Source: an uncultured Alphaproteobacteria bacterium (GTDB lineage Bacteria; Pseudomonadota; Alphaproteobacteria; ATCC43930; CGMCC-115725). Taken from it: a stretch of DNA of 40,000 nt. The notes beneath the pieces were generated by a model. That model did no database searches and was not told the DNA's origin. It was given only the letters and a program-made list of their open reading frames with translations. This document shows, piece after piece, positions 5,527 to 19,540 of this stretch. Both the position numbers and the translations under genes were made by a program. Positions within the stretch are counted from its first letter, which is position 1. The number at the start of each line of letters is the position of its first letter. Location: positions 515,637 to 555,636 of the forward strand of contig CAVPFL010000002.1 in assembly GCA_963703745.1 (NCBI GenBank), in the 5' to 3' direction.

Positions 5527-5547
5527 GTTTGATTGAAAAGGTTCGTC

Positions 5548-5990
5548 ATGAAAGTCGGCCTGTTCATCAACACGCAGTTCCCAGAGGGCTTCAACCTCGC
5601 AGAACGCGTCCCGGAGATGGTGGTACAGGTGCGCGCGGCGCGCGACGCTGGGTTCGCATCTCTCTGGTTCCCGCATCACTGGCTGACCCATCCGATGCAG
5701 ATGCTGCAGATCACGCCCGTGATGGGCTACGTTGCGGCGCACGCGCAGGGCATGACGATCGGTCCAAATATCCTGATCCTGCCGCCGCTCAATCCGGTGC
5801 ATGTGGCCGAGGAAGCCGCCACGCTCGACGTGTTGACCGGCGGCAACTACATCCTTGGCGTCGGCCTGGGCTATCGCCAGCCGGAATTCGACGCATTTGG
5901 CATTAGCCTCAGCGAGCGGGCGCCTCGGTTCAACGAGAGCATCGCCTTGATGCGTCGGCTGTGGACCGAGGAGCGGGTGAGCCACAAGGG
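5548..5990 (+). pseudogene. LLM-class (luciferase-like) flavin-dependent oxidoreductase, 5-prime fragment cut by the casposon insertion
   Basis: MKVGLFINTQFPEG...SLWFPHHW...LDVLTGGNYILGVGLGYRQPEF...RLWTEERVSHKG, after which the frame runs into TIR sequence. The rest of the gene resumes at 19527-20075. Confidence 0.88.
5977..5990. repeat. Left target-site duplication GTGAGCCACAAGGG
   Basis: An identical 14-mer occurs at 19527-19540, immediately outside the two TIR ends. The last G could belong to the TIR, so the TSD is 13 or 14 bp. Confidence 0.85.
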
Positions 5991-6127
5991 GGGGCCTCCC
6001 CACCACCACACCCTGGGGTCCCGCGAGAAGTAAGCCGTTGCCCCCCACAACCGGGACGCGAACTTGAGCGGAGCGAACGAGCGGAGCGAGCGCGACGAAG
6101 CGCAGCGAGATCGCACAAGGCTTTCTT

Positions 6128-6192
6128 ACTGGCGCAATAGATTGCAGCACTGGGAGCAGTGGAAATTCGCACTGGCGCAATAGATTGCAGCA
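6128..6192. repeat. 43-bp tandem unit in left TIR (one full copy plus a 22-bp partial)
   Basis: Unit ACTGGCGCAATAGATTGCAGCACTGGGAGCAGTGGAAATTCGC. The same unit is present five times plus a partial in the right TIR. Confidence 0.85.
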
Positions 6193-6270
6193 ACCAATAC
6201 ACTGGGCGCGCCGCTCGCAGTGGAAATCTCAGTAAAGCCGTTGATATTGCTGGGGTTGCAGTGCGGCTGC

Positions 6271-6376
6271 CACGGCAAGGCTCCGCCGGCGACCGCTGGG
6301 ATGTCTCGATCGAGCTCGGCGACCGCGAGGCCGGGGACCGGGCCGATCGCCACGGCAAGGCTCCGCCGGCGACCGC
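6271..6376. repeat. 80-bp unit, family B, left TIR (one full copy plus a 26-bp partial)
   Basis: CACGGCAAGGCTCCGCCGGCGACCGC recurs at 6271 and 6351. The right TIR has two full copies plus a partial (18888-19073). Confidence 0.8.
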
Positions 6377-6378
6377 TC

Positions 6379-6488
6379 GGGAGCCGCTGGCGTGCCCCTC
6401 GATCGCAGTCGAGGGCAGGCTCTGCCGGCCCTCGGGAGCCGCTGGCGTGCCCCTCGATCGCAGTCGAGGGCAGGCTCTGCCGGCCCAG
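6379..6488. repeat. 55-bp unit x2 in left TIR, each with a palindromic core CCCTCGA-TCGCAG-TCGAGGG
   Basis: GGGAGCCGCTGG starts at 6379 and 6434. Two copies are also present in the right arm (about 18776-18885). Confidence 0.8.
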
Positions 6489-7075
6489 CGGTCGCCGCAG
6501 CTGCCAGCCCGTGGCGATCGAGCGCGTCCCCTGCCTCGCGGTCGCCGGGCGCCGCCGAGGCTGCCCAGCGGGCGCCGCAGCTGCCAGCCCGTGGCGATCG
6601 AGCGCGTCCCCTGCCTCGCGGTCGCCGGGCGCCGTCGAGGCTGCCCAGCGGGCGCCGCAGCTGCCAGCCCGTGGCGATCGAGCGCGTCCCCTGCCTCGCG
6701 GTCGCCGGGCGCCGCCGAGGCTGCCCAGCGGGCGCCGCAGCTGCCAGCCCGTGGCGATCGAGCGCGTCCCCTGCCTCGCGGTCGCCGGGCGCCGTCGAGG
6801 CTGCCCAGCGGTCGCCGCAGCTGCCAGCCCGTGGCGATCGAGCGCGTCCCCTGCCTCGCGGTCGCCGGGCGCCGCCGAGGCTGCCCAGCGGGCGCCGCAG
6901 CTGCCAGCCCGTGGCGATCGAGCGCGTCCCCTGCCTCGCGGTCGCCGGGCGCCGCCGAGGCTGCCCAGCGGGCGCCGCAGCTGCCAGCCCGTGGCGATCG
7001 AGCGCGTCCCCTGCCTCGCGGTCGCCGGGCGCCGCCGAGGCTGCCCAGCGGGCGCCGCAGCTGCCCGCCCGTGCG
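6486..7075. repeat. 80-bp unit, family A, left TIR (seven full copies plus a partial)
   Basis: CAGCGG recurs at 6486, 6566, 6646, 6726, 6806, 6886, 6966 and 7046. Each unit has two polymorphic sites (G/T after CAGCGG; GC/GT before CGAGG). Confidence 0.9.
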
Positions 7076-7085
7076 ATTCGAGCCG

Positions 7086-7475
7086 CTATGTTTCATCGGA
7101 TACGGCGCCGGCGTTCGCGTAGGCGGCCTTGCAGAAGCGGTCGCGGCCGTTCAAAAATAGGATAAATATAGCCCTCTCCCCTAGCGAAAGGTGAGGCTGG
7201 GCGGTTTCCGAAACATGCGCAGTACAAGGTACCGATTGCGCGAAGAACCAGCTGTACACCAGCAAGTCGAGGCCGCTCGCGACGAACCCGAGCCCGTCAA
7301 CGAACACAAAGAGGAGCAATGCCCATCGCATGTGGTGGTGATCGAGCCGCTTGGGTGCGGCTGAACTGCGTAAGACCGGCGAAAAGCTCCACCAATCCAG
7401 ACGAATTTCCACGCGATACCGGCGATTGCGATCAAAGGTAAGCCGAACAATCAAAGCGAGCACAAGGCAAATCAT
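7086..7475 (-). CDS. Hypothetical small membrane protein; its C-terminus extends into the left TIR
   Basis: ATG at 7475 is preceded by AGGAGG at 6-nt spacing. Hydrophobic stretches MICLVLALIV and WALLLFVFVDGLGFVASGLDLLVYSWFF are present. The ORF ends ...AGAVSDET inside the TIR. No recognised family. Confidence 0.45.
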   Translation of the reverse strand: MICLVLALIVRLTFDRNRRYRVEIRLDWWSFSPVLRSSAAPKRLDHHHMRWALLLFVFVDGLGFVASGLDLLVYSWFFAQSVPCTAHVSETAQPHLSLGERAIFILFLNGRDRFCKAAYANAGAVSDET

Positions 7476-7501
7476 AGGGAGCCTCCTAAAAGGATCTGAT
7501 C

Positions 7502-7690
7502 CTAAAACGGATAATCCACGTTCGCCAGATGCGAGCGCGCGGAACAACCGCGAGGGTGGGGTGCGGGCACCGCGACGGATTGTAATCGCGTAAGTTGTGG
7601 AGGCGACGGCCCGTCATCGTACACAACCGGCATCACCGTCTTGCCATCCCAGCAGGGACAGCGCGGCCGTAAGAGATCGCCGCGCTTCAT
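7502..7690 (-). CDS. Hypothetical 62-aa protein, last member of a translationally coupled chain
   Basis: ATGA start/stop overlap with the upstream ORF at 7687-7690. No recognisable motifs. Confidence 0.3.
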   Translation of the reverse strand: MKRGDLLRPRCPCWDGKTVMPVVYDDGPSPPQLTRLQSVAVPAPHPRGCSARSHLANVDYPF

Positions 7691-7959
7691 TTCCGCTCCG
7701 CCTCTATCACCCTCAGCGTGGCCCGCGCGGAACGGATCAGCGAGCGATAAGCCGCCTTCTCGCCGCAGAAATCGACGCCATCGGCATAATATTCGGCATC
7801 GCTCTTCAGGTCGGCCAGGGCGGCGTCATCAAGTTCGACAACGGCGCGTCTTCCATCGTCACGGATGATCACGCGCTCGCCATCGTGATCGGAGCAGCGG
7901 TCATAGTGATCGCGCCAGAAGATGCCAGGCAGGATCAGGCGGCGCATCGTCATTTCCAT
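7687..7959 (-). CDS. Hypothetical 90-aa acidic protein
   Basis: The ORF overlaps both neighbours by a few nt. No recognised family. Confidence 0.45.
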   Translation of the reverse strand: MEMTMRRLILPGIFWRDHYDRCSDHDGERVIIRDDGRRAVVELDDAALADLKSDAEYYADGVDFCGEKAAYRSLIRSARATLRVIEAERK

Positions 7960-8171
7960 TCAGCCTGTCCGCGGCGCTGTGCCGCCTTGTTAATCGTCAC
8001 GGCACAATGCGGACACCAGTTGGCGTCTATCACGTCGCCCTCGGTCAGCGGCATGCCGCAGGGGATGTGCTCATACTCGGCATTTGCCGTTATGCGCCGC
8101 ATCTCCGCTATGTCGGCAGCCGGAATGGTTCTCACGTCCCGGTGCGGTCCTGCCTGAATGATGTAGATCAT
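7950..8171 (-). CDS. Hypothetical 73-aa protein with a possible Cys/His zinc-binding motif
   Basis: Starts MIYIIQAGPH at an ATGA overlap with the upstream ORF. Contains HIPCG ... WCPHC. The longer 115-aa version in the track is unlikely. Confidence 0.45.
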   Translation of the reverse strand: MIYIIQAGPHRDVRTIPAADIAEMRRITANAEYEHIPCGMPLTEGDVIDANWCPHCAVTINKAAQRRGQAEWK

Positions 8172-8311
8172 TGGCAGCCACTGGCGCGCGAGACGTGAAT
8201 AATCCAACTGCCGTCTGCTGCAGTAGATACCACTGGGTAAAGGTGAGACCAGCCCGCGAGATATACGGCCGCGAGAAAGACTATGACGAAGTGCCAAATT
8301 TTGCGGATCAT
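8168..8311 (-). CDS. Hypothetical 47-aa single-pass membrane peptide
   Basis: Read by hand: MIRKIWHFVIVFLAAVYLAGWSHLYPVVSTAADGSWIIHVSRASGCQ. ATGA overlaps at both ends. Below the ORF-track size cut-off. Confidence 0.4.
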   Translation of the reverse strand: MIRKIWHFVIVFLAAVYLAGWSHLYPVVSTAADGSWIIHVSRASGCQ

Positions 8312-8535
8312 GGCGCGCCCTCCGCGCGGATCAGAAGATCCACCAGCATCAAGTTGCGTTTCACTGCGGCGAGAGCCTTTGTGAGGTCGTCGCGCTCGAT
8401 CGCCAAGGTGAAATCGGCTCCTACCAGTGCGATTTCGTCCCGCAGCCGTTCTGCGAGCGGGACCAGCGGTTGGCGAAGATAGGGAGATGTGGATTGCGTC
8501 GGCTCGATCGAGCCGGTTAACGTGTCAAGGGACAT
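8308..8535 (-). CDS. Hypothetical 75-aa protein, first gene of the coupled chain
   Basis: The ORF has plausible coding composition and its stop overlaps the next start. No recognised family. Confidence 0.45.
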   Translation of the reverse strand: MSLDTLTGSIEPTQSTSPYLRQPLVPLAERLRDEIALVGADFTLAIERDDLTKALAAVKRNLMLVDLLIRAEGAP

Positions 8536-9032
8536 GGCTGCCTCTATCAGCTGTGTTCAAGTCGCTGTCGGACGTTCGCGCGTCCGGCAGCGGCGCCCTC
8601 CCCACAACGGGAGGGGCACGAATTCAGCGCTCGCGGCGGAGAAAAGTCAAGCGCGCGAAAGCGTTGAAGAGCGCTCTTTAAGCCTGCCCCGCACTGCGAT
8701 ACGGGGTCCGGACGCGCAAACGCGGAACAGTGCCCGCGTTCATCGTGCGTCGCAGCTCGTTTACCTTCTGAGCGCCCTTCCGTCCGCTGGCGCTTTGTTG
8801 TTCCGACGTTCGGGCTGCATTCGCAATCCGGGCGCCGGCGCTTCTTTGCTACGGGGTTCGGGACGCTTGCCCCTTCCGAGCGCGGGCGCTGAGTTGCTCA
8901 ACGGTAAGCTTCTTTGCTATTCCGCGTCGAAGGTTTTCACGCGCTCGCTGCGACGCTCTATCACGCTGCTCTATTGTACATAGAGCGGGCGCGCGGTTTC
9001 ATCGAATAAAAGATAGACGTATGGGAAACTTT

Positions 9033-9443
9033 TCATACCATGCGATGGCGCGGCCGTTGCTGTTGGCCCGGCTCTTTGGCGCCCGGCTCTGCGGCGGCTT
9101 TCGCGGGAGCAACGGGTTTCTCGCCATTGCCGGCCGGCGGCTTATCACCAGCCGGCGGCTTCTCGCCATTGCCAGCCGGCTTCTCGGCATTGCCGGCCGG
9201 CTTGTCCCCGGCCTTCGCCGGGGCAGGCTCGCCCGGCTTCTCACCATTGCCGGCCGGCTCAGGCTCACCATTGGTATGACGGTGGCGCCATAGCTCGGCA
9301 ATGCTGCGGTTGACGCCGCGCAATCCGCTCGCAACCGCCGCTTCGAGCCTGCCAATGCGCGTCTCTAACGCGTCGATTGCTGCGGCTCCGGCCTTCTCGG
9401 CAATGTCCAGCGCTTTGACGATTTCTGCGTCGAAATCAGCCAT
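9033..9443 (-). CDS. Hypothetical protein: helical N-terminus plus a Pro/Gly/Lys-rich repeat tail (PAGNGEKP-like units)
   Basis: Likely start MADFDAEIVKALDIAEKAG at 9443. The C-terminal half reads GNGEKPGEPAPAKAGDKPAGNAEKPAGNGEKPPAGDKPPAGNGEKPVAPAK. The underlying DNA shows imperfect short tandem repeats (9100-9280). Confidence 0.5.
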   Translation of the reverse strand: MADFDAEIVKALDIAEKAGAAAIDALETRIGRLEAAVASGLRGVNRSIAELWRHRHTNGEPEPAGNGEKPGEPAPAKAGDKPAGNAEKPAGNGEKPPAGDKPPAGNGEKPVAPAKAAAEPGAKEPGQQQRPRHRMV

Positions 9444-9678
9444 TACCGTTGCCTCGTAGCGCGTCGCGCAAGCCATCGGCAAACGCCGCACGTTGCGCGG
9501 TGCGAGCCGACTCCGCTGCAGTGAGTGCAGACTGACGCTCGAAATCGTATGATGCGGCAAGGCCACTGAGGAACCCGAGCATTGCACCTGCCTGACGGGG
9601 ATCACTGCAGGGGCATAGATCGGGATCAGTATCGAAAACTTGCCTGACATAGGCGAGAAACTGCAGAATTTCGTTCAA
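9436..9678 (-). CDS. Hypothetical 80-aa protein
   Basis: TTG start at 9678 is preceded by AAGGAGA at about 6 nt. The stop overlaps the start of the downstream repeat-protein gene. Confidence 0.4.
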   Translation of the reverse strand: MNEILQFLAYVRQVFDTDPDLCPCSDPRQAGAMLGFLSGLAASYDFERQSALTAAESARTAQRAAFADGLRDALRGNGNG

Positions 9679-9763
9679 GATCTTTCTCCTTAAAGACGAC
9701 AATAAACCTAACGCAGCATACCCTATGTTGTGCCGAGCGCGAACGCTTCCCATATCCCTATGT

Positions 9764-10057
9764 ATGTTTGAACAGACGCCTTCGCCGCTGTCGCAATGGC
9801 TGGCCTATCTCGGGATAGAGGCTGCCGTTCTCAGTCGGCGGCTAGGGTTGCATCATACCGCCGTCCGGATGGCTGCTATTCGCGGCTCGCGGCGATGCAG
9901 CTGGCTCCGGGAAGCCGAGCTATTGCTCTCCGTTCCCGCGCGCGTGCTCGTCTCGATCCCGCCGAACGATCCTCGTACGGCGCGCTATCGGGGCGAGGCT
10001 CTCATTGCAGCGGCGGAATGCCGTCTGCGCGATTTGCTGCGCGATCGAGCCTCTTGA
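9764..10057 (+). CDS. Small putative helix-turn-helix DNA-binding protein
   Basis: MFEQTPSPLSQWLAYLGIEAAVLSRRLGLHHTAVRMAAIRG resembles a Cro/CI-like HTH. Transcribed divergently from the 9678 gene. Confidence 0.45.
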   Translation: MFEQTPSPLSQWLAYLGIEAAVLSRRLGLHHTAVRMAAIRGSRRCSWLREAELLLSVPARVLVSIPPNDPRTARYRGEALIAAAECRLRDLLRDRAS

Positions 10058-10119
10058 CAATCGGAGAGATGCTTAGATATAAGCATGGGTCTAGCGTCGA
10101 TTTTAATTGGGTTCCTACC

Positions 10120-10533
10120 ATGCCAAAAACTACTCCCGCCCGCCGCGCTTCAAACCGCGAAAGTCAGAAGAAATTTCGCGAGGAAAAAGCGCGCGGGGGT
10201 ATCGTTCCTTGCACGGTTTGGGTTCCGCGCGACCGTTGCCCGGAATTGCGTGCGCTCGCCGAATTGCTCTGTTCCGATCGCGATTTGATGGTAGGTCCGG
10301 CTCGCTCTATCGAGACTGGTAGGCAAGTGTCTCGCCGGCAGTCGGCTCGCGTTCAATTTCTATACATGGGAGCGGCTTGGTCTTGCACGGCTAAAACGCT
10401 GGAAGCGCTGCACAAAGCAATCGATGCTGATAAACCGATCGAGTTGGAGCAATTCCCTGACGTACGACAAATTGCTCGCGCTGCTCCCGGTACAAAACCG
10501 CTGGTAGGTGAAACGCTTCGCTACGATCGTTGA
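10120..10533 (+). CDS. Hypothetical 137-aa protein with a basic N-terminus
   Basis: MPKTTPARRASNRESQKKFREEKARGG... No family recognised. Confidence 0.45.
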   Translation: MPKTTPARRASNRESQKKFREEKARGGIVPCTVWVPRDRCPELRALAELLCSDRDLMVGPARSIETGRQVSRRQSARVQFLYMGAAWSCTAKTLEALHKAIDADKPIELEQFPDVRQIARAAPGTKPLVGETLRYDR

Positions 10534-10536
10534 ACC

Positions 10537-10821
10537 CTAATCCGCAGCTTCCATCATTGCGCTGCGGCTCCCGAGGCTCTTTTTCTGCGCACTCCGCAGA
10601 ACTCTGCGTCGCTGCGGCTCGGGAGGCTCATGACGCTCTATACCGATATGCTGCGCCATCGCTTCCAGTGCGAGCCGCACTGAGACTATCCTCCGCTCCG
10701 CCAGCTGCGGCGCCAGCGGCAGCCTCCATGCCGCGGGATCGAGCCCGCGGGAAAGCCAACGCAGGAAAACCAATTGCTCGGGAACGCTTCTCGGCAGATC
10801 GTGCCCGCCCGGAACGTACAT
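10537..10821 (-). CDS. Hypothetical 94-aa protein
   Basis: The ORF starts 10 nt after the stop of the upstream gene on the same strand. No motifs recognised. Confidence 0.3.
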   Translation of the reverse strand: MYVPGGHDLPRSVPEQLVFLRWLSRGLDPAAWRLPLAPQLAERRIVSVRLALEAMAQHIGIERHEPPEPQRRRVLRSAQKKSLGSRSAMMEAAD

Positions 10822-10830
10822 CGCAACCCC

Positions 10831-11673
10831 TTAGCCGTATGCCGGCTGACGCGGTCGTACCTTTAGGGCAACTGGTCCGATCGGTCGAGCCGGTTGCGGT
10901 CGTAGCCGGCTCATATCGACGCGCGAATGCGCCGGACAATATACATCGCCCAGTTGTGCGACGGGACAGCCGCAGAACGAGGGCGCCAGCTGCCCGCCGT
11001 CGAGACGCGTCATTGCCGGCATCGCGCATGCGCGCCCAAAGAGAACGCCCGGAAACACGTCTGCATATAAGGTCCACGCGCCCGGTAGGCTGGCGCCTAT
11101 GGGCAATGCGATACGAGAAGCCTGCCCCTGCGGTATGACGGCGGGAAGATTTATCGTCTCGCCATCAAGTCCTGCCCCGTGCGGAGCCTGCCCCGTGCTG
11201 CGACACGGGGACACGGGGGCGGGACCGGGGAGCCCGTCCTCGAGATAATCGCCCCGCGCGAGCCGGGACAGCGGCTCGAAAACTTTAACGAGAACTCCGA
11301 TGATGCCTCCGGACGCGGGAGCCTCGGCAGCATCGGCTTCGACGTCAACCCACGGCTGCTTAGCCTCGATCGTCAGCGGGTCGACCGTGTTGCGAGCGGT
11401 TTCCCGAGCTTGCCGCGCTTCGCGCTTCTCGGCTTTGGTGCGTCGCTTGCCGATCGAGGCTTTGGGAATGCCGGCTGCAGCTGGGGACCAGCGCTTGCCG
11501 CTTTGTGAGCGAGTGGAAAGCTTCTCGATCGCAGGGAAGTACTTTTCGGGGATCGGACGTTTGCCGCTAGTCCAATGCCGCAGCTGATCGGCAGAACAGC
11601 CTATTTCGGACGCAGCGGAAAAACTGGTGTGACCGCGGGATCGCAACAGCGCGCGAAGTTCATCCTTTGTCAT
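10831..11673 (-). CDS. HTH DNA-binding protein with a GcrA-like Cys-rich C-terminal motif
   Basis: N-terminus FSAASEIGCSADQLRHWTSGKRPIP looks like an XRE/Cro HTH. C-terminus CAMP...FCGCPV...YCPAHSR resembles the CxWP...FCG...YCxxH signature of GcrA-type regulators. Confidence 0.55.
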   Translation of the reverse strand: MTKDELRALLRSRGHTSFSAASEIGCSADQLRHWTSGKRPIPEKYFPAIEKLSTRSQSGKRWSPAAAGIPKASIGKRRTKAEKREARQARETARNTVDPLTIEAKQPWVDVEADAAEAPASGGIIGVLVKVFEPLSRLARGDYLEDGLPGPAPVSPCRSTGQAPHGAGLDGETINLPAVIPQGQASRIALPIGASLPGAWTLYADVFPGVLFGRACAMPAMTRLDGGQLAPSFCGCPVAQLGDVYCPAHSRVDMSRLRPQPARPIGPVALKVRPRQPAYG

Positions 11674-11805
11674 GCTCGGATAAATGGTCGCGCGTATGAC
11701 CGATTTCAGCGGCCGGACGCAGTCAAAAGCTTGTGCTCGCGCAAGCGAGTAGCGAATGCGATCAATCGATAAGGGGATATGCGATCAAGCCGCGACCAGC
11801 TTAGT

Positions 11806-12384
11806 CTAAGCCGCGATCCGATCGAAATCGACACCGTGCTGTGCGGCGAGCCTGCGATAGCGTTCTGCCTGTTCAACCGAGAGAGGCAGGTTCCCCGTTT
11901 CGGCGCGGCGGACAACGGACTCGCGAAGATCGAGCTTTGCGGCGAGTGTCGCTTGCGTGAAGCCGAGCGACTTGCGCAGCTTCAAGAGTGCAGCCGGGGG
12001 AGGGACAGCCGTAAGCTCCCTCGTTCCTTGGGCGCCCATCCAATGAACGAGTTTTTCGACGGCTGCCTGTGAGACGGGGTTACGGCCGATTTCCCATTGC
12101 GCGACGGATTGCTGCGCGACGCCACAAATTTCCGCGATCCGGGATTGTGTCAAACCGAGCGACTGGCGCAGATCCCGCAAGACGGGACCGGCTGCCTCTT
12201 TGCGGCGCAGTAGCGGCATCAACGCTGGAATGTCTTTGGGCGTTACGAAACCCATCTGTCGCGCTTTGCGACTGATCCGAGGCTCGATTTCCTCGGCTCG
12301 TTCCTTCAGCGCAAACGCACGGTCGTAATCGCCCGCTGTAAGAGCGGCTGCAGCATCGGTCAAGAGTTTGCTCGCTTCTATCAT
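11806..12384 (-). CDS. Tandem XRE-family HTH repressor-like protein (two Cro/CI HTH domains)
   Basis: Likely start MIEASKLL at 12384. It has two units: LRQSLGLTQSRIAEICGVAQQSVAQWEIGRNPVS and LRKSLGFTQATLAAKLDLRESVVRRAETGNLPLS. Transcribed divergently from the replication/integration operon. Confidence 0.75.
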   Translation of the reverse strand: MIEASKLLTDAAAALTAGDYDRAFALKERAEEIEPRISRKARQMGFVTPKDIPALMPLLRRKEAAGPVLRDLRQSLGLTQSRIAEICGVAQQSVAQWEIGRNPVSQAAVEKLVHWMGAQGTRELTAVPPPAALLKLRKSLGFTQATLAAKLDLRESVVRRAETGNLPLSVEQAERYRRLAAQHGVDFDRIAA

Positions 12385-12389
12385 GACAG

Positions 12390-12416
12390 TTGTAACCGTC
12401 TCTTCCGTGCTATAAT
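12390..12416 (+). promoter_or_regulatory. Candidate sigma70-type promoter for the pPolB-HNH-cas1 operon (TTGTAA-N15-TATAAT)
   Basis: TTGTAA at 12390-12395 and TATAAT at 12411-12416. The first ATG of the operon is at 12424, so the transcript could be leaderless. Sequence inspection only. Confidence 0.35.
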
Positions 12417-12423
12417 TCCCCAC

Positions 12424-13128
12424 ATGATGCCACAAAAATTTTCCCCCGCACAAGATCTAGTGCAAAATCAAGCCTTTGCCTCCCGCCCGACCGGGGCAAA
12501 AGGGCAAATCGGCGGGACCGAGGCTCTACCCGATTCGTCGATTTCGCTCGCTGCGACGGGAACGGCTCACTTCTCGCAGCACGGGACAGGCATCGCGCCT
12601 GCCTTGCTTGCCGCGGTCGAGGATATCCGCTGGCGGGAATTGTTCGCCCAAGCGCGGCAAGCGCTGTCACCCGAGACGCTCGCAGAGCTAGGCGGGCTTT
12701 TGGATCATCCTGACGCCTACGATCCCGAACGCCGCGACGAAGTGCGCCAATCGCTCGAAAGGCTGATCGATACCGAGCGGCGGATCGCCGCACGGATTGC
12801 CGAGCAACGCTCCGACATTGCCGAGATGGCGGAACTGATACACGCGGAGCACGAGGCTGGTCGCGCATATCGGCGCACGGTTCGCGAGGCTTACCGCCGA
12901 CATTCCGAAGCCGAGCGGCTCGAAACCGAGCGGCGCGAAGCCGAGCGGCTCGCGGCAATCCGCCGGGTCGCCGTAGCGCAGGCTGCCCGCGACGAAAGGT
13001 CGCGGGCGGAGCGGCGGAAAGCCGACAAAGAACTGCGGCGAATTGACGCAGAGCGGCGCGCTAAAGAGCGAGCCGAGCGACAGCGCCAGCGGCTCGCTGC
13101 GTGGCCACGCAAACAGGCGTTCGCCTAA
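12424..13128 (+). CDS. Hypothetical protein with a highly charged Arg/Glu-rich C-terminal half
   Basis: 234-aa ORF that is the first gene of the plus-strand operon. C-terminus reads ERLETERREAERLAAIRR...ERRKADKELRRIDAERRAKERAERQRQR. Confidence 0.5.
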   Translation: MMPQKFSPAQDLVQNQAFASRPTGAKGQIGGTEALPDSSISLAATGTAHFSQHGTGIAPALLAAVEDIRWRELFAQARQALSPETLAELGGLLDHPDAYDPERRDEVRQSLERLIDTERRIAARIAEQRSDIAEMAELIHAEHEAGRAYRRTVREAYRRHSEAERLETERREAERLAAIRRVAVAQAARDERSRAERRKADKELRRIDAERRAKERAERQRQRLAAWPRKQAFA

Positions 13129-13796
13129 TGGCTCGCTCCCGTCGCACCTCCCGCGAGACGCTGCAGCGCCAGCGCCAGCGACAACGCGAGCGTTCGGCGC
13201 GGGATCGCGCTCGCGAAGCCGCTGCAAAAGAGACGCTGTCGGCTTCAAAGGCTGCATCGCAACGCAGCGCCCGCGAGCACTTGTTCACAGCTGCGCGCGC
13301 ACGGACGCAAGCGATTAAAGCCGGCCGGCATGGATTGCCTGAAGCTGCAGCCCTACTGCGCGAAACAGCTGCCGAGCAAGTCCGCCTGCAACGAGAAGCC
13401 GAACGCGGCGCTGCAGCCGATAGGCGCTGGCTCAAATCGCTCGTTACTCCCGCCAAGCGTCGGACGACCTACCAGCGGCGGGTTGCCAGCGGTGCGGTGC
13501 GGCAGGTTGAACGGGAGCGCGCAACTCGTGCAGCAGTCCAGTCGCAACTTCCGCCCGAATGGCCTCCTGCCAATTGGCAGCGCGACAAGTTCCGCGACCG
13601 CTTCTCTTATGCATGGTGGCTGGGATATTCGCGGCAGGATGCCAGCCTTCCGGCAAAGTTTCTAATGGAGCCGTTCGAAGTACAGCTTGACGCGATGGAC
13701 GACGCAAGACTTGCGCATATTCAATGGCTGCAGAACAAGCGGGAAGATTTAGGATTGGAAGACACGGAATATCGCAGCTATCACACAAACGGCTAA
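13128..13796 (+). CDS. Hypothetical 222-aa basic protein immediately upstream of pPolB
   Basis: The start overlaps the previous stop (TAATG). Arg-rich N-terminus MARSRRTSRETLQRQRQRQRERSARDR. Trp/Tyr-rich C-terminal region SYAWWLGYSRQD...IQWLQNKRED. No family recognised. Confidence 0.5.
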   Translation: MARSRRTSRETLQRQRQRQRERSARDRAREAAAKETLSASKAASQRSAREHLFTAARARTQAIKAGRHGLPEAAALLRETAAEQVRLQREAERGAAADRRWLKSLVTPAKRRTTYQRRVASGAVRQVERERATRAAVQSQLPPEWPPANWQRDKFRDRFSYAWWLGYSRQDASLPAKFLMEPFEVQLDAMDDARLAHIQWLQNKREDLGLEDTEYRSYHTNG

Positions 13797-13800
13797 GCCT

Positions 13801-16107
13801 ATGCTCGATCAAGCTGGCGAGATTACTTTCGGATATCCCGATGATTACTTTTGGGAATTGACCGAAGTTGATCGAGGCAATCCCGGACTGGTCGCCAAGC
13901 GCTGCAAGCGCTGCGCGCGCGCGGAACAGGCGATCGAGCTATGGTTCGAAGGCGAGCGCAAGCGGGATGCGCGTTGCCCATTGTGCGGCGCCATCGTCCA
14001 CAACCAAAACCGACATAAGGGACCGGACTTGCGCTCGCGCAAAGGCGATCGTCACAAGTCGGGTAGGAAAGATCCCCGCTACAATACGGCCGATCGCGCG
14101 ACGGCTCCGTTCATCGCCATCGACGGCGAGGGCGCGGGAACCAACGAGCATGGCCAGCAGAATTACTTATACATGGCCACTTGCGACGTGAGCGGCGAAG
14201 TAATATCAGAGCTCTTCGAAGACAATCGAGCGCTCTCGACAAAAGAATGTTTGGAATATATTCTGAAACTTCCAAAGCATAAGCTGATTGTCGGGTTTCA
14301 TTTCGACTATGACGTAACGATGATTTTACGAGATCTACCAATCAAACAACAAAGAAGACTATTCCTGCCTTTGCCACGGAGAAACAATCCTAATAATGAA
14401 GAATGTGCGTTCTATACCTACTGGCAGGATTACGCCATCCAATACATTCCCTACAAGCATTTGATGGTCTCGCGCCGAATAGATCGCAACGTCAATCAAA
14501 ACATTCCGGAGACTACCCGCACAATCAACTTTGTTCAAGGGTACTTCTCCGGCGGATTAGTTGACGTTGCTCAGTCTTGGTGTGGTCTCGATGCGTGCTC
14601 GATTGCCGAACTTGAAAAGATGAAAGCGGCGCGACCGTCTTTCGAAAGCATAACACCGGAAATCAAAAGCTATTGTCAAAAAGAATGCCAGTATCTCGCC
14701 GTGGCAATGCATAAGTTCCGCGAGATCGTACTCGCGGGCAACGCTGCGCTACAAGAGCGCTTGCCGAACGTCAGCCTGATACCGCGCGATTGGCAGGGAC
14801 CGGGACCAATGACGCAGCGCTTGCTCGCGAGCCTCGGCATACCAAAGCGAGACGACCTCCCCGAGCATGATCCCGAATTCATGGAAGCGGCGCGAGCAAG
14901 CTTCTCCGCCGGCCGGACTGAGATCGCCCTAACCGGCCGGATCGATGGTCCGGTCTATGCCTATGACTTGAACTCGGCTTACCCTGCAGCGATCCTGCAG
15001 CTACCATGTCAGCGGCATACCCGCTGGTGCAAGGTGACAGAGCCGGCTCCCGGATCGCTCTATTTCGCCCGGCTCAGCTGGAAGCAACCGGCTCGATCCC
15101 GCTGGGGTGCGTTTCAGGTACGCTCGAAATTCCAAACCCTGTTCGCGCCGCTCTCCGGAGCGGGCTGGTATTGGTCGCCTGAGATCGAGGCTGCAGGCAA
15201 GCTGCGCGCCAAGGTACAGTTGCATGAGATATGGCAAGCCGAGAGATGCTGCGATTGCCATCCTTTCGCGGCGATCAAATCGATTTATGACTACCGCAAG
15301 TCGCTCGATAATGACCAGCTAGAATATCCGATCAAACTTGTGTTGAACACCCTTTACGGCAAGTTCTCGCAAAGAATAGGTGCGGCGCCTTACTATGATC
15401 CGATTGCCGCGGGATTAATTACCTCGATCGTTCGCTCACGGCTGATCGAGGCGATCAGTCTCGATCCCGAGGCAGTCATAATGGTTGCGACCGATGCAGT
15501 CTATTCGACGCGTCCGCTTGCGCTCGAAATCGACAAGCAGTTAGGACATTGGAAATTAACGAAGCATCTGGCCGGAGCGTTCGTTGTTCAACCGGGCGTA
15601 TGGTGGCCACTGTCCGAAGCATCGGGAATGTTTGACCACAAAACCCGCGGCATTCCTCAGCGAGCTATTGTGCCAATGGTAGATCAATTCTATGACGCAT
15701 GGGACCAATACATACGTTTTACTAGTTCTAAATACTCTCCGAACATCGAAGATTTAGGACAACCTACTGTTGAGATACCCTATCAAGTCTTTATTCCTTT
15801 GAAGCTGTCGCTGCATCCCGAAATGCTGATGCTGTATAAGATCGATCCTGCGTCGGCGCGTTCCGGTCAATGGATCGAGCGCAAGCATCCAGTCCGCTTC
15901 AACTGGCGCACAAAACGGCGCCTTGGCGGCTGCACTCTGCAAGACGGACACGTCAAGCATTGGCCTTATCCCGATATGGACGGGGAGAGCGGCACGGCTT
16001 TTGATGGGGCGGAGCTAGATCGATTGATGGCATGGCAGAACGAAACCGAGTATGCTTATCCCGACAGCGGCTATTCGCCGCTCGATTTCATCCCGAAACC
16101 CGAGTGA
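13801..16107 (+). CDS. Family B DNA polymerase, protein-primed type (pPolB)
   Basis: 768 aa. Exo motifs FIAIDGEG (DxE) and HFDYD. Polymerase motif A YAYDLNSAYPAA (DxxSxYP), motif B KLVLNTLYGKFSQ (Kx3NSxYG-like), motif C MVATDAVYS (DTD-like). Confidence 0.88.
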   Translation: MLDQAGEITFGYPDDYFWELTEVDRGNPGLVAKRCKRCARAEQAIELWFEGERKRDARCPLCGAIVHNQNRHKGPDLRSRKGDRHKSGRKDPRYNTADRATAPFIAIDGEGAGTNEHGQQNYLYMATCDVSGEVISELFEDNRALSTKECLEYILKLPKHKLIVGFHFDYDVTMILRDLPIKQQRRLFLPLPRRNNPNNEECAFYTYWQDYAIQYIPYKHLMVSRRIDRNVNQNIPETTRTINFVQGYFSGGLVDVAQSWCGLDACSIAELEKMKAARPSFESITPEIKSYCQKECQYLAVAMHKFREIVLAGNAALQERLPNVSLIPRDWQGPGPMTQRLLASLGIPKRDDLPEHDPEFMEAARASFSAGRTEIALTGRIDGPVYAYDLNSAYPAAILQLPCQRHTRWCKVTEPAPGSLYFARLSWKQPARSRWGAFQVRSKFQTLFAPLSGAGWYWSPEIEAAGKLRAKVQLHEIWQAERCCDCHPFAAIKSIYDYRKSLDNDQLEYPIKLVLNTLYGKFSQRIGAAPYYDPIAAGLITSIVRSRLIEAISLDPEAVIMVATDAVYSTRPLALEIDKQLGHWKLTKHLAGAFVVQPGVWWPLSEASGMFDHKTRGIPQRAIVPMVDQFYDAWDQYIRFTSSKYSPNIEDLGQPTVEIPYQVFIPLKLSLHPEMLMLYKIDPASARSGQWIERKHPVRFNWRTKRRLGGCTLQDGHVKHWPYPDMDGESGTAFDGAELDRLMAWQNETEYAYPDSGYSPLDFIPKPE

Positions 16108-16120
16108 CGCAATCGCGCTG

Positions 16121-16717
16121 ATGTCCGGCTCCCCTGTCGACCGATTCCGCCGCGCCGCTGCAACACGGCTCGATCACTATGCAATCCTCCACCCGCAGTG
16201 TGTCTATTGCGGCGACGCTGTAATGTCGCGCATGCGCGGCAGTGGCGAGACACGGCATTATGATCATTTTATACCGATCGAGATTATCATTCGCGCTCGC
16301 GAAGCATATCCACTGCAGCGATTTCCGAACTGTCTATTGCCGTGCTGTCGCCGCTGCAACGGCTTTGCCGGATCGTTCTACTTCTCGATATTATCTAAGA
16401 AATTCAACTACTTACAGTGGAAAATCGGCGATTACGAGCCCCGCTTGCGAGCGCGCGTCGCGGCAATCGTTCTGCAGAAATTCAGCGGGCTTGAAGTACC
16501 GCAAGCGCTCGCCGATATCGTGCACCCAATGGAAGAATTCCGCGACGGCGATTATCCTATATTGGAGCCAGTGCGTCTCGATAATGGAAACTGGTCTATT
16601 GCGCAAGAACTCGCGGAAAGGGCGCTTGCACTGCAATGGAATTCTCAGACACCAATTTCGGAGCCGTCAAAAACGGCGTGCTCGTTCTCTCCGGATTTAG
16701 AATTCGTGTCAGGGTAG
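16121..16717 (+). CDS. HNH endonuclease
   Basis: CVYCGD...HYDHFIPIE...NCLLPCCRRCN matches the CxxC...H-N-H...CxxC architecture. Located between pPolB and cas1. Confidence 0.78.
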   Translation: MSGSPVDRFRRAAATRLDHYAILHPQCVYCGDAVMSRMRGSGETRHYDHFIPIEIIIRAREAYPLQRFPNCLLPCCRRCNGFAGSFYFSILSKKFNYLQWKIGDYEPRLRARVAAIVLQKFSGLEVPQALADIVHPMEEFRDGDYPILEPVRLDNGNWSIAQELAERALALQWNSQTPISEPSKTACSFSPDLEFVSG

Positions 16718-18060
16718 AAGCGGGCGCGCTCGTTGTGCAAGACGGAATAAAGGGAGCCGAGATCGAGCGGCGCTTTCCGCGCGCCAGCTGTCCGGTCTCG
16801 CGATTGATCGCAGTGCAGCCGGAAGGCATTATCACGTTCGCTGCGCTGCGCTGGCTCCACAATGTAGGCGCTTCGTTCGTTCAACTCGACTATGACGGAA
16901 CGCCTATCGCGACCAGCTTGCCGCGGGGCACTGTTCCGGCTGCACTGCGGCGAACGCAAGCGCTCGCCTCGATTGAGACGCGACTCGGCAAGGCTATTGC
17001 TCATAGTCTCATTAGGGCGAAGATCGCGGCGCAAATCGCGACGCTGCGCAGTTGCGACCGCGACGCAACTGCAATCAGCGCCTTTGCAAATGAGTTGCAG
17101 TCTCGCGCCAGCATGCTCGAATTACTGGGCACCGAGGGCAATGCATCCGCCGTCTATTGGCAAGCGCTGGCGAACGTGCCGCTGCAGTTCGGAAAGCGCC
17201 AATCCCCGGATCAAGTCCGGGGAGTTCCCGAGCATTGGCGAGTGTTCGGCTCCCGCACGTCTAGCATGACTGGCGCGCCGCGCGGCGCGCCAGTCATGCT
17301 AGACGTGACTGGCGCGCCGCGCGGCGCCGTTGTCCCCGCGCAAGCCGTGCTGAATTACCTCTATGGCGTGCTCGCCAGCGAGATCACCATAGCGTTGCAC
17401 GCGGCCGGTCTCGATCCCGCGTTGGGCATACTGCACGCGGATAAAGTCGGCGGGACTTCGCTCGCTTATGACTTGATGGAACCCGCGCGACCGCTTCTCG
17501 ACCGCTGGCTGTTGCACTGGCTGCAGACTGCGACGTTTTCGAAGCGCGATTTCCGCGAAGACATTTACGGCTTTATCCGGGTGACGCATCCGCTGACTTC
17601 GCACCTTGCAATGACTGCGGCATTGTGGCGCGGGATCGCAGAGCAACTGGCGGAGTGGATCTATCGGCGGTTGAACGGAGAGAACGCGGCTCTTCGATTG
17701 ATTGGTGTCGATTGGCTTTCATCCGAGGCAAGGCGCCGCGCAGTTCGCTGGCGTCTCGGGCACACGATGCAGCGGCCGGTTCCCGCGACATGCGCGGAAT
17801 GCGGTAAGGCTCTTCCGAAAGGGAGACGGCGGTTTTGCTCGGGAGATTGTATGAGGGCATGGCACGGCGAAGTTCTGACGACTGCCGGCATGCTCGCAAT
17901 CTCCCGCCTTTCTCCCGCCGCCCGTTCCGACCGTTCCCGCCGCTCCGCCCTCTCGCGATCACCCGAGGCACGGCGCGAGGCTGCGCGGACTGCGGCAAGG
18001 GCTCGCTGGGCGCGACGTGCGGTCGCGGTCGCGGGCGCCGTATCCGATGATGAAACATAG
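16636..18060 (+). CDS. cas1: Cas1-family integrase (casposase) with a C-terminal Cys4 zinc-ribbon/FCS-like extension
   Basis: The N-terminal beta domain is Cas1-like (VLSGFRIRVRVEAGALVVQDG...ITFAALRWLHNVGASFVQLDYDG). Catalytic-region motifs are LLGTEGNASAVYWQAL (Glu) and ILHADKVGGTSLAYDLMEPARPLLDRW (His, Asp/Glu). The C-terminus has CAECGKALPKGRRRFCSGDC. The stop lies 5 nt before the right TIR. Confidence 0.88.
   Translation: MEFSDTNFGAVKNGVLVLSGFRIRVRVEAGALVVQDGIKGAEIERRFPRASCPVSRLIAVQPEGIITFAALRWLHNVGASFVQLDYDGTPIATSLPRGTVPAALRRTQALASIETRLGKAIAHSLIRAKIAAQIATLRSCDRDATAISAFANELQSRASMLELLGTEGNASAVYWQALANVPLQFGKRQSPDQVRGVPEHWRVFGSRTSSMTGAPRGAPVMLDVTGAPRGAVVPAQAVLNYLYGVLASEITIALHAAGLDPALGILHADKVGGTSLAYDLMEPARPLLDRWLLHWLQTATFSKRDFREDIYGFIRVTHPLTSHLAMTAALWRGIAEQLAEWIYRRLNGENAALRLIGVDWLSSEARRRAVRWRLGHTMQRPVPATCAECGKALPKGRRRFCSGDCMRAWHGEVLTTAGMLAISRLSPAARSDRSRRSALSRSPEARREAARTAARARWARRAVAVAGAVSDDET
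17259..17304. repeat. Perfect 46-bp palindrome inside cas1, followed by a third partial copy (17307-17327)
   Basis: GTCTAGCATGACTGGCGCGCCGC|GCGGCGCGCCAGTCATGCTAGAC, checked base by base. Encodes the duplicated peptide MTGAPRGAPVMLDVTGAPRGA. Confidence 0.95.
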
Positions 18061-18109
18061 CGGTCGCGAACGCCGGCGCCGTATCCGATGAAACATAGCG
18101 GCTCGAATC

Positions 18110-18780
18110 GCACGGGCGGGCAGCTGCGGCGCCCGCTGGGCAGCCTCGGCGGCGCCCGGCGACCGCGAGGCAGGGGACGCGCTCGATCGCCACGGGCTGG
18201 CAGCTGCGGCGACCGCTGGGCAGCCTCGGCGGCGCCCGGCGACCGCGAGGCAGGGGACGCGCTCGATCGCCACGGGCTGGCAGCTGCGGCGCCCGCTGGG
18301 CAGCCTCGACGGCGCCCGGCGACCGCGAGGCAGGGGACGCGCTCGATCGCCACGGGCTGGCAGCTGCGGCGACCGCTGGGCAGCCTCGACGGCGCCCGGC
18401 GACCGCGAGGCAGGGGACGCGCTCGATCGCCACGGGCTGGCAGCTGCGGCGACCGCTGGGCAGCCTCGGCGGCGCCCGGCGACCGCGAGGCAGGGGACGC
18501 GCTCGATCGCCACGGGCTGGCAGCTGCGGCGCCCGCTGGGCAGCCTCGACGGCGCCCGGCGACCGCGAGGCAGGGGACGCGCTCGATCGCCACGGGCTGG
18601 CAGCTGCGGCGCCCGCTGGGCAGCCTCGACGGCGCCCGGCGACCGCGAGGCAGGGGACGCGCTCGATCGCCACGGGCTGGCAGCTGCGGCGCCCGCTGGG
18701 CAGCCTCGGCGGCGCCCGGCGACCGCGAGGCAGGGGACGCGCTCGATCGCCACGGGCTGGCAGCTGCGGCGACCGCTGGG
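18110..18780. repeat. 80-bp unit, family A, right TIR (eight full copies plus a partial)
   Basis: CCGCTGGG recurs every 80 bp, with its last base at 18140, 18220 and so on up to 18780. The order of the two polymorphic sites differs from the left arm. Confidence 0.9.
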
Positions 18781-19526: not shown

Positions 19527-19540
19527 GTGAGCCACAAGGG
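19527..19540. repeat. Right target-site duplication GTGAGCCACAAGGG
   Basis: Identical to 5977-5990. Confidence 0.85.

Follow-up and report, generated by a model that had tools for sequence, protein, structure and literature searches.

Each of the two terminal arms of a 13.5-kb bacterial casposon carries two families of tandem units of about 80 bp, A and B, which face each other within the arm. These families are probably diverged subfamilies of a single repeat conserved in the casposon lineage, set against one another by a one-off rearrangement, with the short sequence blocks which they share being putative binding sites and the palindromic geometry being a by-product. The analysis was performed on a stretch of 40,000 nucleotides from an uncultured Alphaproteobacteria bacterium (referred to as the window), and all coordinates are those of this window.

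Identity and gene content of the element

Casposons are self-synthesizing and self-replicating transposons that integrate by means of a Cas1-family casposase. The element located at positions 5990-19526, which the original prediction had described as a TIR element, is identified as a casposon on the basis of the combination of Cas1, a family B DNA polymerase, TIRs, a 13-14 bp TSD and a restored host ORF. The TSD copies are both read on the forward strand, with GTGAGCCACAAGG at 5977-5989 (13 bp, or 14 bp when the next G is counted) and the same sequence at 19527-19539, while published casposon TSDs have a median length of 15 nt (PMC4046053). The insertion interrupts an oxidoreductase gene of 330 aa, as in silico deletion of 5990-19539 generates a single uninterrupted LLM-type oxidoreductase ORF of that length. 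The terminal 203 nt of the two ends are complementary at 203/203 positions. In bacterial host range and in the Zn-ribbon/HTH architecture of its relatives, the element resembles casposon family 3 (PMC4046053). No CRISPR-like arrays were found in the window, the 80-bp units being contiguous, 96-100% identical and without unique spacers, and neither a telomere resolvase nor an identifiable terminal protein was retrieved among the element's proteins by Pfam and NCBIfam searches.

The casposase (474 aa, Cas1 family, 16636-18060, + strand) is recognized by Pfam Cas_Cas1 (1.4e-36) and NCBIfam cas1 (1.1e-31), contains a Zn-ribbon, and has the M. mazei casposase (6opm) as its top PDB match; within the catalytic region, 33 homologues are invariant in columns E167, H267 and D279 and nearly so in E282. 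The protein is 70% identical to its homologue P0002 through residue 457, where the similarity stops, and it is approximately 55-70 aa shorter at the C-terminus than P0002, P0007, P0010 and P0011. The C-terminal HTH domain that characterizes casposon families 2 and 3 is present in these relatives and absent from the window casposase; this domain belongs to the lineage and has been lost from the window copy. A tblastn search retrieved an inverted and frameshifted remnant of a cas1 3' end on the - strand at 7505-7595, about 400 bp inward of the left arm, which corresponds to the C-terminal HTH (TYAI.IR.G.R.P...PHPR...VDYPF) and matches weakly, in adjacent frames, the C-termini of P0011, P0007, P0008 and P0010 (14/22 and 10/19 identities). 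The cas1 gene of the window also contains a perfect palindrome with a 24-bp stem (17256-17307; fold z -7.4), being part of an in-frame 39-nt insertion of the form X-rcX-X that is missing in P0002, where the alignment has a gap. An Rfam scan of the element returned nothing above the gathering threshold, and two sub-threshold matches to miRNA families (17243-17331) merely reflect this palindrome.

The family B DNA polymerase (768 aa, 13801-16107, + strand) is identified by Pfam DNA_pol_B_2 (1.4e-8, 34.5 bits versus a cut-off of 25.8) and has no match in PDB or NCBIfam. Between polB and cas1 lies a conserved ORF (16052-16717, + strand) without Pfam or NCBIfam match, in which an HNH-like motif (HYDH...CCRRCN) can be discerned by eye; relatives possess ORFs of 177-182 aa at the same position, with tblastn matches in loci L005 and L085, and the gene order polB, small ORF, cas1 is common to the window element and its relatives. 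An Xre-type protein with two HTH domains (11806-12453, - strand; Pfam HTH_3 5.2e-16, two stretches), homologues of which are encoded on the P0002 contig and in locus L163, is a candidate DNA-binding factor.

Anatomy of the two arms

The left arm (5990-7119) measures 1130 bp with 75% G+C and the right arm (18065-19526) 1462 bp with 73% G+C; a repeat search finds them 95-100% complementary, and both consist mostly of tandem arrays of 80-, 55- and 43-bp units. Family A occupies 6483-7083 in the left arm (7.5 units of 80 bp, TRF 98%), where all nhmmer matches are on the - strand and the units vary at two sites only, and 18101-18781 on the + strand in the right arm (8.5 units according to TRF, nhmmer and a unit table). 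Family B is shorter. In the left arm it comprises 1.4 units, or about 112 nt, at 6269-6380 on the + strand (nhmmer profile matches 6264-6322 and 6314-6402, and the motif map), its motifs opposing those of family A, and in the right arm 2.4 units, or about 192 nt, at 18882-19075 on the - strand (TRF 99% and nhmmer). Units within either family are 96-100% alike.

As originally described, A and B oppose each other across an exact duplication of a 55-bp unit, situated at 6376-6486 in the left arm (TRF 100%) and at 18778-18888 in the right, and every copy contains the CCCTCGA-N6-TCGAGGG hairpin (at 6396, 6451, 18794 and 18849). A 43-bp repeat with CAGTG..GGAAATT-type motifs is found further out, with about 1.5 copies at 6128-6192 on the left and 5.5 copies at 19152-19388 on the right (TRF, 100% for the latter), and homologous motifs occur in the outer arms of the related loci L128, L163 and L167. 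Copy numbers therefore differ between left and right for family A (7.5 versus 8.5), family B (1.4 versus 2.4) and the 43-mer (1.5 versus 5.5).

Two further interpretations of the arms were rejected. Long ORFs of 388-487 aa that span the arms are regarded as non-coding, since the 80-bp period is no multiple of 3 and the A array is free of stop codons in all six frames. The notion that the 55-mer represents an inversion junction built from A- and B-derived halves was discarded as it resembles A or B not significantly more than shuffled sequence does (score 14-15 versus a mean of 14.1); beyond the 7-bp stem, its self-complementarity is equalled by 122 of 1000 shuffles.

Families A and B are inverted copies of one unit

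According to the original prediction, the two families of an arm are reverse complements of each other, with 60 of 80 positions identical in an ungapped alignment, and this proved correct for both arms: the reverse complement of B 6297-6376 matches A 6488-6567 at 60/80 positions on the left, and the reverse complement of B 18888-18967 matches A 18697-18776 at 60/80 on the right. As literally worded, by contrast, the claim paired the reverse complement of 18888-18967 with 6488-6567, which yields 28/80 (39 in the best register); read directly, both on the + strand and in register 0, these two segments share 60/80 positions, and since they come from opposite arms, such direct identity implies an inverted relationship of the families inside a single arm. 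The three shared blocks named at the time, GCGGTCGCCG, CCGTGGCGATCG and CCTCGCGGTCGCCG, were all recovered.

This similarity exceeds what is expected by chance for GC-rich sequence. The highest score among 5000 dinucleotide-preserving shuffles, each taken at the best of 80 registers, was 49, short of the observed 60, with a mean of 36.3 and an sd of 1.8. Self-complementarity is lacking in both families (at best 38/80). An independent repeat search retrieved within-arm inverted arms of 155-235 nt with 70-74% complementarity, for example 18589-18780 against 18884-19075 (192 nt, 74%, 103 nt apart). The two families are old paralogues.

Folding of the arms

It had also been suggested that each arm could fold back on itself as a hairpin or cruciform, and of this suggestion the hairpin stands as a prediction for single-stranded DNA, in which B pairs with A, whereas the cruciform does not. 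The minimum free energy (MFE) of 6250-6600 is -141.7 kcal/mol as compared to -109.8 +/- 4.5 for shuffles (z -7.1). The range 18760-19080 initially proposed for the right arm contains almost no family A and gives a z of only -0.8, while the replacement range 18560-19090 gives -209.3 versus -174.0 +/- 5.8 (z -6.1). Extrusion of a cruciform from duplex DNA requires near-perfect arms and a very short spacer. Here the arms are 70-75% complementary over 112-192 nt and are separated by 103 nt, and for this reason cruciform extrusion at A/B is unlikely; the sole perfect stem in the opposed region of an arm is that of the 55-mer hairpin, with 7 bp and a 6-nt loop.

The 80-bp unit in related elements

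The 80-bp unit also occurs in the four closest relatives that have readable arms, with Cas1 proteins that are 69-78% identical to that of the window. The nhmmer unit profile retrieves six units in L167 (all on the - strand, left arm), two in L128 (+), one in L163 (+) and one in L001 (+); the contigs are all short-read metagenome assemblies, where tandem copies may have been collapsed. In all four relatives the units adjoin a homologous junction, ACTGCAAACC, and outer CAGTG..GGAAATT motifs. The opposed layout is missing from these relatives, an outcome that had been named beforehand as a refutation: nhmmer detected no units of opposite orientation in the arms of L167, L128, L163 and L001, and no family B. 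Given this single orientation, the layout is specific to the window element, and a role as a conserved origin or resolution site, as had been put forward, is not borne out. Neither the 55-mer nor the CCCTCGA-N6-TCGAGGG hairpin was found in any related locus searched. No closer finished relatives were retrieved from IMG/VR viral contigs, and plasmids yielded distant CRISPR Cas1 proteins only (<30% identity). Most of the genome loci (Acidobacteriota) have ordinary TIRs of 35-500 bp and no GC-rich arrays past cas1, and are uninformative with regard to the unit; an inverted match between L031 (692-800) and L114 (2482-2589) corresponds to a common HTH gene and not to a TIR.

The conserved core of the unit can be written as CGATCGCCACGG...GGCGACCGC, and the blocks CCGGCGACCGCGAGG, CGATCGCCACGG and GGCGACCGCTGG are common to A, B and the relatives, with variable linkers. 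All 18 occurrences of CGATCGCCACGG in the window, and 29 of the 32 occurrences of GGCGACCGC, are located in the arms, with strict motif polarity inside each array, and according to the motif map the unit motifs do not return as operators in the interior of the element. Sites at which A agrees with the reverse complement of B tend to be those conserved in the four other elements (2x2 counts 53/9/7/11, odds ratio 9.3, p 2e-4), in a test that rests on local alignments of short GC-rich units. These short motifs are thus confined to the ends and conserved across relatives, as is typical of subterminal protein-binding arrays. At the 20 sites where A and B differ, the relatives match A at 12 and B at 8; A and B are 25% divergent, as compared to 16-21% for A against units from other elements. 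With A-B divergence as large as that between elements, the opposed arrangement could be an ancient one that other elements have lost, or else B could be an import.

Among the related loci, the casposase-type Cas1 genes of L031 and L095 directly adjoin CRISPR arrays, and one of these two loci has casposon-type neighbours (a weak polB-like match). The L031 spacers and repeat have no exact match in the viral contigs, and the spacers of L031 and L095 have no meaningful match among related loci.

Origin of the opposed arrangement

In the explanation that we favour, families A and B go back to one 80-bp unit, which in the nearest relatives makes up a lone array of uniform orientation right beside the outer arm. 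In the window element a single old event, either the inversion of a local block or an inverted duplication by template switching, would have placed B and the unrelated 55-mer, in inverted orientation, between A and the outer arm, and the B block would have come to be present in both arms through copying between them, as the arms are kept nearly identical. A precedent for template-switch inversion within this element is provided by the perfect X-rcX-X insertion in cas1. The conserved blocks most likely represent repeated sites for a casposon-encoded DNA-binding protein that would mark or organise the ends; putative binders are the Zn-ribbon/HTH tail of the casposase, against which it counts that the window casposase has no HTH domain, and the conserved double-HTH Xre-like protein. 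The long imperfect hairpin would be possible only when the arm is single-stranded, and the lineage does not require the palindromic geometry.

A rival view is that the units have no function, their number having grown by slippage, that a block was inverted accidentally, and that the shared blocks reflect descent together with GC-biased mutation. Copy numbers that vary between arms and among relatives (1 to 6 units) agree with it, as does the finding that casposases in vitro require the terminal TIR nucleotides only (PMC6977970). It is nevertheless unlikely, since A, B and the units of four other elements all retain the same short blocks between variable linkers, and the unit is held at the same position in the arm despite Cas1 proteins being only 69-78% identical.

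A functional fold-back, in which a B:A hairpin formed in a single-stranded casposon serves as replication origin, priming site or excision signal, is distinctly improbable. It would account for the retention of the opposed layout in both arms and for B folding on A in each of them well beyond shuffles (z -7.1 and -6.1), and it would agree with the proposal by Krupovic et al. of a single-stranded DNA intermediate in which TIR panhandles act as origins, internal palindromes having been noted in some TIRs (PMC4046053). Yet the four closest relatives that have readable arms lack this layout, and no sign of selection for pairing is visible, with one quarter of the positions mismatched even though left and right arm are 98-100% identical. 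Moreover, at a distance of 280-450 nt from the termini the hairpin would be unable to self-prime an end, and arm-to-arm pairing would be far more stable than pairing within an arm. A speculative reading, which we regard as doubtful, is that the subterminal arrays of ~80-bp units, with three conserved blocks each, are a putative binding platform for an element-encoded protein, so that recognition of the ends or the start of replication would depend on sequence lying hundreds of bases into the TIR, and that here the opposed B and A units would fold the arm, as a single-stranded hairpin or a protein-mediated loop, and so regulate that step.

The original prediction had further considered a fossil of an older, nested terminus, meaning that B, with or without the 55-mer, would be a second casposon end captured through nested insertion or recombination. 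Such an origin has a low probability. A and B are 25% apart, like units of different elements, B retains the state of other elements at 8 of the 20 differing sites, and tandem as well as nested casposon insertions occur in Methanosarcina (PMC4779613). Against this, the terminal sequence GGGGGCCTCCCCACCACC is present at the two true ends only, the terminal 18-mer occurring nowhere else even when 3 mismatches are allowed, and the B/55-mer block is not bordered by direct repeats of TSD type. Interior genes, and not outer arm, would be expected to follow a nested left arm, while B is followed by junction and outer arm in the orientation normal for that arm.

Finally, mis-assembly of GC-rich repeats into an inverted block is very improbable, because, although tandem arrays are error-prone in assembly and copy numbers may be inaccurate, the order B, two 55-mers, A is found with identical sequence in both arms (left B versus the reverse complement of right B, 80/80), these arms lie within a clean TSD-flanked insertion whose removal restores the host ORF, and the two arms have unequal copy numbers and a different succession of unit variants, a pattern unexpected of a duplicated artefact.

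Comparison with known systems

The element shares a Zn-ribbon casposase, a family B polymerase, HTH proteins, TIRs and a 13-14 bp TSD with described casposons (Krupovic et al. 2014; the bacterial family 3-like NitAL212-C1, and the biochemically characterised ones of M. mazei and A. boonei), in which TIRs sometimes contain internal palindromes (PMC4046053). It differs in several respects. Its arms of 1.13 and 1.46 kb compare to published TIRs of 25-602 nt (median 56), and no description of tandem arrays with a conserved subterminal unit in casposon TIRs was found in the searchable literature. The insertion site is a protein-coding gene and not a tRNA or ef-2 3' end; the HTH domain, essential in the M. 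mazei casposase, is absent from that of the window; and, while terminal nucleotides suffice for archaeal casposases in vitro, a binding platform as proposed here would use sequences deep in the TIR.

Subterminal transposase-binding repeats are known from the TnpA sites of En/Spm-CACTA elements, the L1-3/R1-3 sites of Mu and the TnsB sites of Tn7, and CACTA elements have direct as well as inverted motifs within one end. Like these, the window element has a short conserved motif in multiple copies, limited to both ends and with mirrored polarity; unlike them, its units are long (80 bp, three blocks) and strictly tandem, and their binding is putative. Blocks of tandem repeats in inverted termini are also found in vaccinia virus (70/125/54-bp repeats), ASFV and linear plasmids, which have resolution sites and whose free ends are closed by hairpins or capped by protein. 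The resemblance extends to kilobase-sized inverted ends, several tandem families and a copy number that varies between ends and isolates, while the window element differs in being integrated with a TSD. Template switching at quasi-palindromes, a form of replication-slippage mutagenesis, produces inverted copies beside the source sequence, and the X-rcX-X insertion in the element's own cas1 is an example of this type. In contrast to fresh products of such events, A and B are 25% diverged and have an unrelated spacer of 110 nt between them, and given this age and separation the event can no longer be reconstructed.

Significance

The inversion inside the arms is best regarded as a rearrangement specific to the lineage, and taken alone it has little general importance. 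The CRISPR adaptation machinery is proposed to descend from casposons, and the CRISPR-adjacent casposase-type Cas1 genes bear on the casposon-to-CRISPR transition and may matter more than the A/B inversion. The window element stretches the known range of TIR lengths approximately twofold. Little is known of end recognition and replication in bacterial casposons, and the conserved subterminal unit, amplified in tandem, could offer a point of entry to the biochemistry of end recognition.

A casposon with long ends built of tandem arrays

The element at 5990-19526 is bordered at both arms by a direct repeat, GTGAGCCACAAGG(G), located at 5977-5989 and 19527-19539, and in-silico removal of 5990-19539 restores an uninterrupted ORF for a 330-aa luciferase-like (LLM) oxidoreductase. 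That the TSD is perfect and the interrupted gene otherwise intact indicates a recent insertion. The target, split into parts at 5533-5989 and 19540-20075, is a protein-coding gene and not a tRNA, the window's sole tRNA being located at 36742-36817. The element encodes a Cas1-family protein (16636-18060; Pfam 1.4e-36) whose top solved-structure match is the Methanosarcina mazei casposase (6opm), a family B polymerase (13801-16107) whose DNA_pol_B_2 match exceeds the gathering score, a small conserved ORF located between the polymerase and Cas1 genes, and an Xre-type protein with a double HTH; the order HTH ... polB, small ORF, cas1 is seen again around Cas1 homologues. Casposons are defined by Cas1, PolB, TIRs and a TSD of ~14 bp, and their published TIRs measure 25-602 nt (median 56), some with internal palindromes (PMC4046053). 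The element is a new casposon, the ends of which are unusually long, with arms of 1130 and 1462 bp as opposed to the published 25-602 nt (PMC4046053), and are made of tandem arrays.

The two arms (5990-7119 and 18065-19526) were identified by an inverted-repeat search as inverted copies of 95-100% identity, with a G+C content of 73-75% versus 60% for the interior. Proceeding inward, each arm consists of ~140 bp of unique sequence beginning with GGGGGCCTCCCC, a 43-bp repeat (1.5 copies in the left arm, 5.5 in the right), ~75 bp of unique sequence ending with the junction GGGGTTGCAGTGC, repeat family B, two copies of a 55-bp unit (the 55-mer), repeat family A, and ~36 bp of unique sequence beyond which the genes are located. 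In the left arm, where the region 6271-6570 is GC-rich and built of repeats, 1.4 units of family B occupy 6269-6380, while TRF placed the exact 55-bp duplication at 6376-6486 and 7.5 units of the 80-bp family A at 6483-7083. The corresponding TRF assignments in the right arm are 18101-18781 for 8.5 units of family A, 18778-18888 for the 55-mer pair and 18882-19075 for 2.4 units of family B, the second 80-bp family. The A units (6483-7083 and 18101-18781) are invariant except at two positions (A/C and G/A), of which all four combinations occur. The order of these variants is not alike in the two arms, a difference that implies both continued independent change of the arrays by slippage or exchange and ongoing unequal exchange within them since the arms were homogenised.

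ORFs of 257-487 aa cross the arms on both strands (5930-7160 and 17573-19530) since stop codons are absent from every one of the six A-array frames. ORF finders would miscall them as genes, and they were rejected as such, being artefacts of GC-rich, stop-free repeats of an 80-bp period.

Families A and B are inverted relative to each other within each arm

The original prediction that family B is the reverse complement of family A within one arm was checked directly in the left arm and in the right arm, and was borne out at 60 of 80 positions. The same ungapped score is obtained when a unit of A (6488-6567) and one of B (18888-18967) are both read on the + strand; these two copies sit on opposite arms, and their + strand identity therefore represents a reverse-complement relation inside one arm. 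The substance of the prediction stands, though its literal wording was loose, the reverse complement of 18888-18967 matching A at only 28 of 80 positions. Mere GC-rich low-complexity noise is excluded as an explanation, since 5000 dinucleotide-preserving shuffles, each scored at the best of 80 registers, gave a mean of 36.3 (sd 1.8) and a maximum of 49 versus the 60 observed. Each unit carries three short blocks, and all three blocks said to be shared were found in the sequence, as was a CCCTCGA-N6-TCGAGGG hairpin in each 55-mer. All 18 copies of the block CGATCGCCACGG in the 40-kb window, and 29 of the 32 copies of GGCGACCGC, are located in the arms, with a uniform polarity that is in one direction in A and in the opposite direction in B.

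Predicted folding of the arms

In single-stranded form, each arm is predicted to fold back as had been proposed, B pairing with the adjoining A units and each 55-mer giving rise to a small local hairpin. The predicted fold of the left arm (-141.7 kcal/mol versus -109.8 +/- 4.5 for shuffles; z -7.1) and that of the right arm (-209.3 versus -174.0 +/- 5.8; z -6.1) are both more stable than those of the shuffled sequences. A cruciform in duplex DNA, the other form proposed, is not expected from known extrusion requirements given a complementarity of 74-75% and a spacer of 103 nt. The hairpin is situated 280-450 nt away from the termini and thus cannot prime end replication. No Rfam families match the arms.

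The 80-bp unit is conserved in close relatives and the opposed arrangement is not

The nearest casposase homologues are metagenomic (60-78% identity), no close relative being found in isolate genomes, viral contigs or plasmids. Arm sequence was readable in four of them: L167 (Cas1 69% identical), with 6.2 copies of an 81-bp unit in its left arm; L128 (78% over the C-terminus), with 2.3 units in its right arm; L163, with ~1.3 units in its right arm; and L001 (70%), with a single right-arm unit immediately 3' of the cas1 stop. A unit profile search matches these units at E values of 1e-11 to 1e-15. Every one of them is in the A orientation for its respective arm, and the outermost unit adjoins a homologous junction (ACTGCAAACC) and outer motifs (CCAGTGYATTGGAAATT); no opposite-orientation unit, 55-mer or hairpin was found in the arms of these four elements. 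Nor was the 80-bp unit found in more distant elements (Cas1 <=65% identical, and the many Acidobacteriota casposons), whose TIRs are ordinary (35-500 bp, and ~1 kb in one case). This distribution identifies the 80-bp unit as a conserved trait of a small casposon subclade and the opposed arrangement as specific to the window element. A conserved functional structure, such as the replication origin or resolution site envisaged in the original prediction, is contradicted by the missing opposed arrangement in the four relatives, an outcome that had been named in advance as its refutation.

Among the fetched loci of related cas1 genes, the TIRs of L002-L081 measure ~35 to 500 bp with the exception of L040 (~1 kb, 82% identity; 1319-2305 versus 15150-16130), and 98 of all 174 fetched loci also contain a PolB match.

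Conserved blocks as putative binding sites

When A, the reverse complement of B (rcB) and units from the other four elements are compared, the invariant columns fall in CCACGG and C..GGCGACCGC, inside CGATCGCCACGG-N11/12-GCSGGCGACCGC. Positions at which A equals rcB coincide with those conserved across elements (53/9 versus 7/11, odds ratio 9.3, p 2e-4), with the caveat that the units are short, GC-rich and aligned locally. Of the 20 positions where A and B differ, the relatives agree with A at 12 and with B at 8. A and B are old paralogues, each homogenised internally with the same blocks retained, neither being a recent copy of the other. This pattern accords better with sequence-specific block recognition than with selection for a helix; one quarter of the potential B:A base pairs are mismatched, though the arms are mutually 98-100% identical. 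The units are probably multiple binding sites at which a casposon protein marks or organises the ends, candidate binders being the Zn-ribbon/HTH tail of the casposase and the conserved double-HTH protein. For published casposases, terminal nucleotides alone suffice in vitro, and their HTH domain is essential (PMC6977970).

Proposed history of the arrangement

The internal inverted relationship is most likely a rearrangement, specific to this lineage, of a conserved subterminal repeat. The ancestral arm would have contained a one-orientation array adjoining the outer arm, and in the window lineage a block of units would have changed orientation through an inversion or a template-switch inverted duplication, with an unrelated 55-mer at its centre that was presumably duplicated later. 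The layout probably occurs in both arms because these are kept nearly identical. The 55-mer has no significant relation to A or B, and no palindromy past its 7-bp stem. A perfect palindrome with a 24-bp stem is present within cas1 (17256-17307) as part of an in-frame 39-nt X-rcX-X insertion (13 aa, PVMLDVTGAPRGA) that is absent in the 70%-identical homologue P0002; it bears the marks of a template-switch inverted duplication of recent date and is direct evidence of hairpin-mediated template switching in the window element. This palindrome also caused two sub-threshold Rfam miRNA hits.

That the inverted block is the fossil of a nested terminus is unlikely, as the terminal 18-mer occurs at the true ends only, the block is without flanking TSD-like repeats, and the outer arm beyond B is in normal orientation. 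The original observation is upheld, and its structural and functional interpretation is supported only partly.

The window casposase ends ~55-70 residues short of its relatives and is without the C-terminal HTH domain present in all close homologues, a 41-bp stretch of the inner TIR boundary, duplicated here, supplying its last codons (17960-18101 region). The lost HTH-coding end persists as a frameshifted, inverted remnant at 7505-7595, just interior to the left arm, which suggests that the inverted repeat formerly reached into the cas1 3' end. Given the truncated casposase and the palindrome insertion, this copy may have lost autonomy.

Casposase genes adjoining CRISPR-like arrays

Casposase-type Cas1 genes are very common in MAGs of soil Acidobacteriota and Alphaproteobacteria, the L031 casposase matching >5000 clusters (90% identity) at E <= 1e-120. 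At this locus (feature at L031:5333-7844; identical to L175 save one mismatch), a full-length casposase-type Cas1 (503 aa) can be aligned with P0002 over its whole length, Zn-ribbon and C-terminal HTH included, at 35% identity, and a 967-aa ORF in divergent orientation to it has a weak PolB match (E 0.008, under the Pfam cut-off). A CRISPR-like array, in which 15 copies of a 36-nt repeat (GTTGTGGATGGCCGAGAATCACCGCTCAGGTACACT) alternate with unique spacers (29-31 nt), starts 24 bases past the cas1 stop and extends to the contig end; L149, L153 and L114 (77-79% DNA identity) are collinear until the cas1 stop and carry no array. A second locus, L095:30-2213, encodes a casposase-clade Cas1 of 408 aa, 42% identical to that of the window, followed ~260 bp downstream by a CRISPR array running to the contig end, with at least 6 repeats of ~35 nt (GCTTCAATGAGGCCGAGGCAGCTTTGCCTCGGATG; reverse complement ending in ATTGAAGC) and spacers of 36-38 nt. 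Upstream of this cas1 is a small ORF with a CxxCN motif recognised by eye, to which the window's HNH-like ORF has no tblastn match. The spacers of both arrays gave no meaningful matches in the fetched loci, and those of L031 no exact ones in viral contigs. A literature search found no description of casposase genes adjoining CRISPR arrays. The L031 locus may represent a junction between casposon and CRISPR, which would bear on how CRISPR adaptation originated.
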